A DNA stretch of 21,446 nt from a virus (taxonomy: Duplodnaviria > Heunggongvirae > Uroviricota > Caudoviricetes), in IMG/VR virus record IMGVR_UViG_2671180360_000006; one strand, written 5' to 3'. A program made the position numbers. Shown here one piece after another: positions 18,001 to 21,000 of the stretch. Position 1 is the stretch's first letter, and each line of letters starts with the position of its first letter.

Positions 18001-21000
18001 CAAATCGCCATTTTGCCATCGCCTTTACAACCTGCTCATCAAACAGATGGTGCGGCTCTGAACGGATAAACTCAATTCGGGTGACAGTACCATCAGCACC
18101 AATATCAAACTTCACATCAACCCGTCCCTTTATATAATTTGCCGCTGCATAGGCCGGATATTGTGGTAATGCCTTAACCAACTGTCGGGGCATATCTGTT
18201 TTATGTTGCGTACAGCCCATAACCAGAGAAGACAACAAAATAATTAACGGAAGATTTCTTTTCATTTTCATTCCCGGCACAGATAAGAATAAGTCTTATT
18301 CTAACAATGCCACCCTGTCGGCCATCAATCCTCTGCTTAATGGCAACGACAATTATCCGACTTAAATCACAAATCAGACACATGACATAACAGGTCTTGC
18401 GAGGTAACACATCGTCCGGTTTCTTCCACCATCGCACCGAACCAGCGACCATGAGGGGACAACGCCGCGCTCCGTTAACGCGGTAAACCCCGGTGTGTAT
18501 CGTTTTTGATTATCCCCGCACACTCGCGCAGAGGAGTCTCCCTGTCGGGCTACGGTCATGGTTAATGCGGGAATACGGCGACGATACAGCGCATAATGTG
18601 TCAGGCTTGAATACCTTTATCGAATCCCGGTAATAAAAACTGTCCCTGTCTCTCCAGACGTTCCAGCTTTGCAAGCAATTGAGGTTTTTTCGTTCTCCCC
18701 CAGCGATTGAGCAGACGGCCTGACATGCTGGCGACATCCTTCTCTTTCATGTACTCCAGCATTACGGCGTTACGTTCTGCTTCATAACTTTCGCTGTACT
18801 TACGGAGTTCTGCTGACATCCAGTTAAACGCATTGATATAGGCTTCTTTAACAGCATCGGCTTTTGCCCCGTTAAATCCCATAACCAGCATAACGAAGCC
18901 ACTAAAGTCCATGCGGTAGTAAATCTGTTTCTTGTCAAAAATACCTAAGTCATTGATTTTCTCGACGGCCCAAAAATGGGTTGTCGAGAATTCCTCAGAA
19001 CATCTCAAACATTTAATAGCCCTAATCACATGCTGATGGCGTTTACCAAATGCCCTGGCAATCTGGAAGGTGTCAGTTACCGGTTGACCTTCTGCTGCGG
19101 TAACTAACTGGCGAAAGTCGAAGTCATGATTCGCAATTAATTCATTCATGGCGTTGCCTGCTTCTTTGAAATGAACCTTTGCCGCATAGGAAACCAGCCC
19201 ACCGAGGCTCGCCAGCACTAACTGGTATCCTCAAAGGCCCATTCCAAAGGGTCAGGTTCGGTGTTTATTGTGCGCTGCGGTGCGCGGTGAAATACCGGTA
19301 CAAAAATGCCCCGCATCTGCGAGGCATTTTCCTGAAAGTCACTTGTTAAATTTCAGTGAAATTAAAATTATTTTAAGCACTGCGTCCTGATGTATTCCTG
19401 CAGGTAGTTAACCTGCGCGGTTATCTTGTCGATTCCACCTCGGAGACGGTAATAATTGAGTTCAGCATCTGCTGTAAGTCCTGGGCTTTCTCCATCGCCC
19501 ATGCTGCTGGCTCCGGTCGTTGACTTTGCACAGGTGGCGAAGACTTGCAGGCGCTTACGCCCAGCAGAAACATCAGCACGGAGACTTTCGATAGTCGCAT
19601 TAGCATCAGCAAGCTCCTTTGTGTATCTGGCGTCAAGTTCTGCTACATCACGTTGCCGCTTCTGCATATCAGCGATGATGGATGTGGCTTTATCGCGCTG
19701 CTCTTTGTAGGCGATGGCGTTATCACGGTAAAGATTAACAGCCCATGACAGGCAGGCGATAATGCAGATAACCAGAGCGGAGATAATAACGGTTACCCTG
19801 CTCATTGTTGCCCCCACAAACAGACTTCACGCTCAATCTCGCGGCGAGTCATCAGCCCTTTCCATTGCTTACCGCCAGCGTATGTCCAGCGCCGTAGCTG
19901 ATCACATGCGCTTTTGATATCGCCCTGGTTTATTTTGCGAAGAAGCGTCGATGTTCTGAAATTGCCAGCGCCCACGTTGTAAACGAACGAGTAAAGAGCG
20001 CCGCGCGTTGTTTCCGGTATATCGACGTTGATGTACGGGTTAATTTGTCTGGCGACCGTGGCAAGGTCTTTATTCAGGAGGGCTTTGCATTCTGCTTCGG
20101 TATACGTTTTACCGGGCATGATGTCTTTTCCGGTGTGTCCGTGACATACAGTCCATACGCCAACGATATCTTTGTATGGTATGTAGCTGACACCTTCCAG
20201 ACCATCGTTACCACCTGGACCAGTGATGAGCACAGACGCTATGGCAACAGCCCCACCACCAATAGCAGCTGCAACAGCCTTGCGTAATGACGGCGACATT
20301 ATTCACCTCTCGCAGCCTTACGCTTATCTTCTTTAATCTTGAAATAAAGATTTGTCAGATACGTCAGCAGGCCAAACAGCAGACTTCCCAGCACACCTAT
20401 TGCCACCCACTGGGACGGAGAGACTTTGTCCAGCAGCTGCAGTAACCAGTATCCCGTCCCCACCGCTGACGTGGTGTATGACACACCTGTTGTGATTTTT
20501 TCCATCTGATGTATGTCTCCGTCACCGCCGACAGAAAATGAAAGTAAAGAAAAACAAAAAAGCCGCCAGTGTCACCCACTGACGGCCAACGCCGGGAGCC
20601 GTGATTATGGCATTCAGGCTCTGCTAAAAATGCCAGATAACATTCCGGCCTCCCCTGATTCAGGTTATAAATGACACAATATCTTGACAACATCCGTCAC
20701 TGTCTGTCAGAAAATGTACTGCCATATAGAAGCAACATGTGAAGTACATCTATCCTTTTGAGCCAGCACCTCTCCACCGAAAGTCAGTGCTGGCTGTTTT
20801 TTTCCTTAATAAGGCATCTGTAACTGAAACAATCCGCATATTGATAATATATTGACAGGCATCATTGCTGTCTGTGAAAAATAAGTCTCTACAAACATAT
20901 AAGGCCTTTTAGCCAGCGTCTTCTTTTTCAGGTCAGTCGCTGGCTTTTTTTATTATGCTGCCGGTGCATTTATCTCCAGCATCAGACTTTCTATCTCAAC

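Follow-up and report, generated by a model that had tools for sequence, protein, structure and literature searches.

An intrinsic terminator between an accessory esterase gene and the pinholin gene of a lambdoid late operon, and the promoter-like hexamers upstream of it

Late region and lysis cassette

The window, i.e. the whole stretch of DNA analysed here (21,446 nt, IMG/VR record IMGVR_UViG_2671180360_000006), carries a lambdoid late operon on its minus strand. The operon enters the window with the 3' part of a gene for a SASA-family sialate O-acetylesterase (20953..21446, minus strand), a moron of the nanS-p type, which is cut at the window end and has its stop codon at 20953. A spacer of 447 nt, holding a terminator and the small RNA PasA, separates the esterase from S, the gene of a 68-aa pinholin (class II holin; 20299..20505, minus strand, ATG at 20505). 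This gene is preceded by a 5' leader (20506..20550) with the Shine-Dalgarno sequence GGAG (20520..20517) and followed by the genes of a SAR endolysin and spanins. No tRNA was found by the tRNA scan, and in Rfam neither a scan of the complete window at gathering thresholds nor an E-value scan of 20400..21100 returned a real family, the E-value matches being chance ones to snoRNA and U12 only (E 0.14 or worse).

Phage 434 (OL657226) is 100% identical to the window over 20450..21000, and the prophage PP2 of E. coli (EPEC) E2348/69 is identical to it over 20480..20990. The window itself is mosaic: the 20450..21446 part has the spacer identical to those of 434 and PP2, the head and tail genes (the 1..20508 part) are nearest to Stx2 phages, such as 2851 (ca. 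97%), and over its full length the window is distinct from 434.

Terminator upstream of S

The initial annotation had placed a strong intrinsic terminator on the minus strand 45 nt before the pinholin start, and the terminator scan, the folding statistics and the annotation of phage 434 agree on its presence. The element (20551..20587) consists of a stem of 11 pairs (20587..20561), seven of them G-C, with the 5-nt loop GGUGA, and a U tail (TTTTTGTTTT, 20560..20551), i.e. of a G+C-rich hairpin followed directly by a U tract on the transcribed strand, as is characteristic of Rho-independent terminators. It was the top-scoring terminator-like site within 18000..21446 and, on the way from the esterase stop codon to S, the first strong one on the late strand; both PasA hairpins are without a T tail on that strand. 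The hairpin alone was predicted to fold with -20.5 kcal/mol (z = -6.0), and 0 of 200 shuffled sequences were as good. The end of its tail lies 45 nt from the ATG of S. The same element is listed as 'terminator' in the record of phage 434 (45673..45709 of OL657226). Thus, the terminator is real, conserved (see below) and already annotated, and no paper discussing a terminator before S was found in the literature.

The conservation of this element was assessed in 80 IMG/VR viral contigs encoding an S21-type pinholin, together with phage 21, which gave 39 distinct upstream sequences of 110 nt. A hairpin with a T-rich tail was present in all 39, the tail starting at a distance of 46-62 nt from the ATG of S. 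The upstream neighbours vary, and include the esterase with PasA- or PasC-type spacers, ORFs ending in ...MMM* directly at the hairpin, and the tRNA genes of phage 21. Twenty-one distinct hairpins could be aligned as homologues, and 94.8% of the cells in this alignment were paired. Compensatory changes were found in 5 of the 11 terminator pairs, and the covariation score was 0.414 vs 0.291 +/- 0.021 in shuffles, none of 500 shuffles reaching the observed value and slid registers causing it to collapse. Single-site variants among the type-A loci also preserve pairing (U.G to C-G in L022, G-C to G.U in L029 and L031). The structure is therefore maintained in evolution, and its presence in every distinct sequence, along with the covariation, indicates that the terminator is under selection and moves together with the S21-type lysis cassette.

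The fixed distance to the S start in very different contexts would also fit an element of the S leader, and the hairpin might then act mainly at the RNA level, either as a 3' stabiliser of a processed esterase message or as a 5' element for the stability or translation of the S mRNA. However, nearly all variants retain a T-rich tail immediately behind the stem, which argues against such a role, since this tail is needed for termination and not for a stability hairpin, and the stem is clear of the Shine-Dalgarno sequence of S. A mainly RNA-level function was considered very unlikely.

In phage 21, a strong unannotated hairpin with a T run is located between the tRNA genes and S21 (1755..1822 of L085; 39754..39820 of OL657228), with a predicted energy of -25.3 kcal/mol (z = -6.4). 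It occupies the same place as the terminator described here, 3' of accessory tRNA genes and with 62 nt between its tail and the S21 start; it differs in its longer stem and in its sequence, and OL657228 has no terminator annotation for it. Homology of the terminator before S to tR' of phage 21 or of 434 was also considered, as the arms look alike by eye (GCCGTTAGTG vs GCCGTCAGTG), and was dropped because the local alignment scores were not above those of shuffles (p ~0.07 and 0.57).

Promoter-like hexamers and the PasA locus

The hexamers TTGTCA (20690..20685) and TATAAC (20669..20664), separated by a 15-nt spacer, are present on the minus strand (20664..20690) upstream of the terminator, as had been reported in the initial annotation, which combined them with the leader and the terminator into a local late unit similar to pR'/tR'. 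Their status as a promoter did not withstand the analysis. Such a local sigma-70 promoter would start transcription at about 20657, and the RNA would end ca. 105 nt later at the terminator, giving a second pR'/tR'-like unit or a late-strand small RNA, with possible read-through to S under the action of Q. The two hexamers match in 10 of 12 positions, the region is nearly invariant, and the RNA would resemble an sRNA in having a 5' hairpin and a terminator with a U tail (predicted late-strand RNA of 118 nt, 20662..20545: -45.7 kcal/mol, z = -3.55). However, TATAAC ends in C and so is without the near-invariant T at -7, the spacer is short, and the standard promoter scan, which covers spacers of 16-18 nt, did not call the pair. 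When one strand of the 447-nt spacer was shuffled with its dinucleotides preserved, 17% of the shuffles matched in 10 or more of the 12 positions under relaxed rules (spacers of 15-19 nt, A2 and T6 not required), so that the pair is within chance. A pR' unit is expected to have a strong sigma-70 promoter with a spacer of 17 +/- 1 nt and a -10 hexamer with A2 and T6, which TTGTCA-15-TATAAC is not, and no local similarity was found between this region and the pR'/tR' regions of 434 (Q82-like) or phage 21. A sigma-54-like sequence, TGGCA..GCA (20632..20619), was also inspected by eye and rejected, its spacing being 2 nt too short.

The late-strand TTGTCA overlaps a perfect TTGACA of the plus strand (20684..20689), of which it is the near-palindromic shadow, and the latter hexamer belongs to the locus of PasA. 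This Hfq-dependent sRNA, antisense to the esterase and holin genes on either side of it, was described in E2348/69 as an 85-nt RNA (743499 to 743415; Pearl Mizrahi et al., PMC8550237, Table S6) with a minor form of 236 nt that ends at 743264. By way of the identical E2348/69 alignment, the major form maps to 20719..20803 of the plus strand, antisense to the late operon, with its terminator hairpin and U run at 20761..20803, and the northern probe for PasA (GCCAGCACTGACTTTCGGTGGAGAG) matches the window. The sequence is 100% identical to that of the defined PasA over the whole spacer, and the esterase-holin location and the antisense orientation are also those of PasA; the silence of the Rfam scan on it is explained by the fact that Rfam has no PasA family. 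This spacer is thus the same as that of the known PasA/PasC locus (EcOnc51/52 in EHEC), the presumptive -35 of PasA being overlapped by the first hexamer of the late-strand candidate. The terminator before S is not part of PasA, which is encoded on the other strand and ends at a terminator of its own.

The plus-strand TTGACA is located at -35..-30 of the PasA 5' end and, judging from the sequence, is probably the -35 element of PasA. The sequences available as its -10, TG-n-CAGAAA (spacer of 18 nt) and GAAAAT (20 nt), are poor, and according to Zhu et al. the 5' end of PasA may come from the cleavage of a longer transcript, so that the PasA promoter is best regarded as presumptive. Because of the overlap of the -35 hexamers, a local late promoter and the promoter of the abundant PasA would compete. 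Since the first hexamer mirrors the likely PasA promoter on the other strand, TTGTCA/TATAAC is not supported as a late promoter.

A second PasA-like module is present further along the plus strand (20852..20954). It repeats the TTGACA (20852..20857) in the same register, followed by a conserved ctgtctgt..aaaat, ahead of a second plus-strand terminator (20911..20952), the T run of which overlaps the esterase stop codon. The 236-nt minor form of PasA ends at window position 20954 and also overlaps this stop codon, and in the literature the second module corresponds to this read-through form. Having its own TTGACA and terminator, the module could also produce a separate sRNA of ca. 68 nt.

Position of Q and of the late promoter

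There is no Q gene in the window, as had been stated initially, and the accompanying caveat that the true pR' may lie further right was borne out by locating Q outside the window, as had been proposed: in both phage 434 and PP2 of E2348/69, Q ends ca. 3.7 kb upstream of S. The Q gene of 434 is Q82-like, and at its 3' end there is a promoter-like site, TTGCAA-17-TATACT, the only one next to Q, which is directly followed by a terminator (tR'). In PP2 the gene order is Q, membrane protein, DUF3927 protein, PasD2, esterase, spacer and holin. Three late-strand terminators are found between Q and S in 434, namely tR', the PasD terminator and the terminator before S, the last being the strongest. A pR' unit lies immediately downstream of the Q 3' end or overlaps it, and the hexamers before S do not, Q and its promoter being 3.7 kb away.

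Late-strand RNA and expression data

Published transcriptome data for identical sequences were used to look for products of a local promoter. In the RIL-seq tables of E2348/69, the late-strand RNA of the spacer appears as a target only, with a single partner (PasB); it was the second RNA in a fraction of 0 to 0.03, and its longest U tract is 4. The reads start at window positions 20724..20706, i.e. upstream of the proposed start at ca. 20657. An Hfq-dependent sRNA of the late strand would be a discrete species, appear as the second RNA in chimeras and end at the U tail, and the RNA recorded is not of this kind. The terminator of the Sakai prophage Sp12 is also identical to that of the window, and in the published Hfq-CRAC tables for Sp12 only the antisense EcOnc51 was called, and no short RNA of the late strand. 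An abundant short terminated transcript in the lysogen, which would be expected of a pR' unit, is thus absent from both sets of tables (RIL-seq for E2348/69, Hfq-CRAC for Sakai Sp12). Taken with the poor hexamers, the lack of similarity to known pR'/tR' regions and the overlap with the TTGACA of PasA, these data led us to reject the proposed unit of local late promoter, leader and tR', and we regard transcription from these hexamers, whether as a late unit or as a small RNA gene, as quite unlikely.

The RNA-seq base means reported for E2348/69 are 102 for the esterase, 3.5 for the holin, 3.2 for the endolysin and 3879 for PasA (PMC8550237, Table S2). Calculated per nucleotide, RNA drops 3- to 8-fold over the identical spacer from the esterase to the holin and endolysin genes, as estimated for a single condition from the DESeq base means of genes that differ greatly in length. 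This drop fits with lysogen transcription ending before S.

Proposed role of the terminator

We consider with fairly high confidence that the terminator before S insulates the lysis genes from the end of the moron segment, stopping transcription that is independent of Q while polymerase modified by Q reads through. Termination in vivo, read-through under Q and the insulating role itself are all inferred, and late transcription presumably has to pass the terminator by means of Q antitermination. The Rho-independent terminator of the late strand would mark the downstream end of the accessory segment that extends from Q/pR' to the lysis cassette. In a lysogen, polymerases with a start other than pR' under the control of Q would halt here, including those transcribing the esterase and any that read through from the sense-strand sRNA PasD, and as a consequence the pinholin, SAR endolysin and spanin genes would remain silent. 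After induction, Q-modified polymerase starting at pR', about 3.7 kb upstream, would pass tR', the PasD terminator and the terminator before S, and S would be expressed. It is established for lambdoid phages that Q-modified polymerase ignores downstream terminators and that morons may carry a terminator of their own (Sy et al. 2020, PMC7547250; Tree et al. 2014, PMC4104026); the moron concept itself is cited in PMC4104026 as that of Juhala and Hendrix.

Two kinds of known system are comparable with this arrangement. As in the pR'/short transcript/tR' units that produce the 6S RNA of lambda and StxS of Stx phages, and in those of phages 21 and 82, a stop on the late strand before the lysis genes needs Q-modified polymerase to be passed. 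The terminator before S differs from them in lying away from Q and in the lack of a credible promoter, and the comparison with the pR' regions of 434 and phage 21 gave no sign of a Q-binding element or pause signal beside it. The terminators flanking morons in lambdoid phages are also factor-independent and are located 3' of accessory genes expressed in the lysogen, downstream of pR' and before essential late genes; unlike these, the terminator before S travels with the S21-type cassette, including that of phage 21, and not with one particular moron. The element is an ordinary one, and the current view of lambdoid late control is unchanged by it. Its presence would mean that in these prophages, many of which are Shiga-toxin phages, the lysis cassette stands behind a third intrinsic terminator, so that accessory genes and sRNAs expressed in the lysogen should not be able to leak into the expression of holin and endolysin.

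The conserved block before S

The 215 nt before S (20506..20720) are non-coding and of low diversity: among 19 type-A loci, pi was 0.020 for the block, vs 0.058 for the S coding sequence and 0.18 for the 5' part of the PasA body (the endolysin part was left out of this comparison owing to misalignment), and mosaic recombination could account for part of the contrast. The block was found in 699 of 5,426 complete E. coli genomes, with a median of 4 copies, and was never annotated. In a region carried by ca. 700 of these genomes in about four copies each, a wrong annotation of a second late promoter can thus be avoided, the promoter-like hexamer belonging to the opposite strand and to the sRNA PasA, whose promoter is presumptive.

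Just upstream of the terminator, the fold of 20662..20545 contains a predicted imperfect hairpin of 61 nt (20594..20654, minus strand), inside which the scan found a weak terminator-like hairpin (20649..20632). The 61-nt hairpin is nearly invariant among the type-A variants, which leaves no variation for a test of covariation. Within it lies an inverted repeat of 7 perfectly matched bp (TGGCATT-N14-AATGCCA), and the hairpin, 30-90 bp from the PasA promoter, might serve as a regulator site for the latter. An ORF of 98 aa (20693..20397) that crosses the block was rejected because it is broken by indels of 1-2 nt in the T run.

The block also contains an ORF of nine codons (MLSGIFSRA; 20642..20613, minus strand) with GGAGG 5 nt upstream. 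A good Shine-Dalgarno sequence and ATG ahead of two hairpins and a terminator, within a highly conserved block of strong predicted structure, might suggest a conditional attenuator or leader, in which translation of this ORF or alternative pairing of the 61-nt hairpin decides whether the terminator forms, tuning S or the timing of lysis. However, the ORF was rejected, as its Shine-Dalgarno sequence is lost in several near-identical variants (GGGTTGG, GGGGTTGG); pairing of an anti-terminator kind is not evident in either the minimum-energy or the centroid fold, and the other spacer types retain the terminator only, without the leader. We give this explanation hardly any credence.

The insulating terminator, which we prefer, leaves one aspect of the block unaccounted for: a plain terminator needs neither the low diversity nor the 61-nt hairpin, and the block may therefore do more, for example in the regulation of PasA or as a leader RNA. 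In a speculative and unlikely extension, the 215 nt would be a control node linked to the cassette, coupling the PasA promoter with a structured late-strand leader made up of the 61-nt hairpin and the terminator. In one version the leader would give rise to an Hfq-independent small RNA; in another, the esterase 3' UTR would pair with PasA in antisense fashion, and this pairing and the termination before S would jointly set the level of PasA and the leakiness of the lysis genes in lysogens.

Other features of the region

An inverted repeat of 19 nt (79% complementary) connects the 3' end of the esterase gene (20967..20985) with the region of the TATAAC hexamer (20655..20673), and may be due to chance. 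Its arm in the esterase contains the PasA target motif reported from RIL-seq (CUGAUGCUGGA). Two good sigma-70-like matches are located antisense to the lysis genes, at 19735..19763 (10 of 12) and 18111..18138 (11 of 12), both on the plus strand; if active, they would produce antisense RNA over R and/or S.
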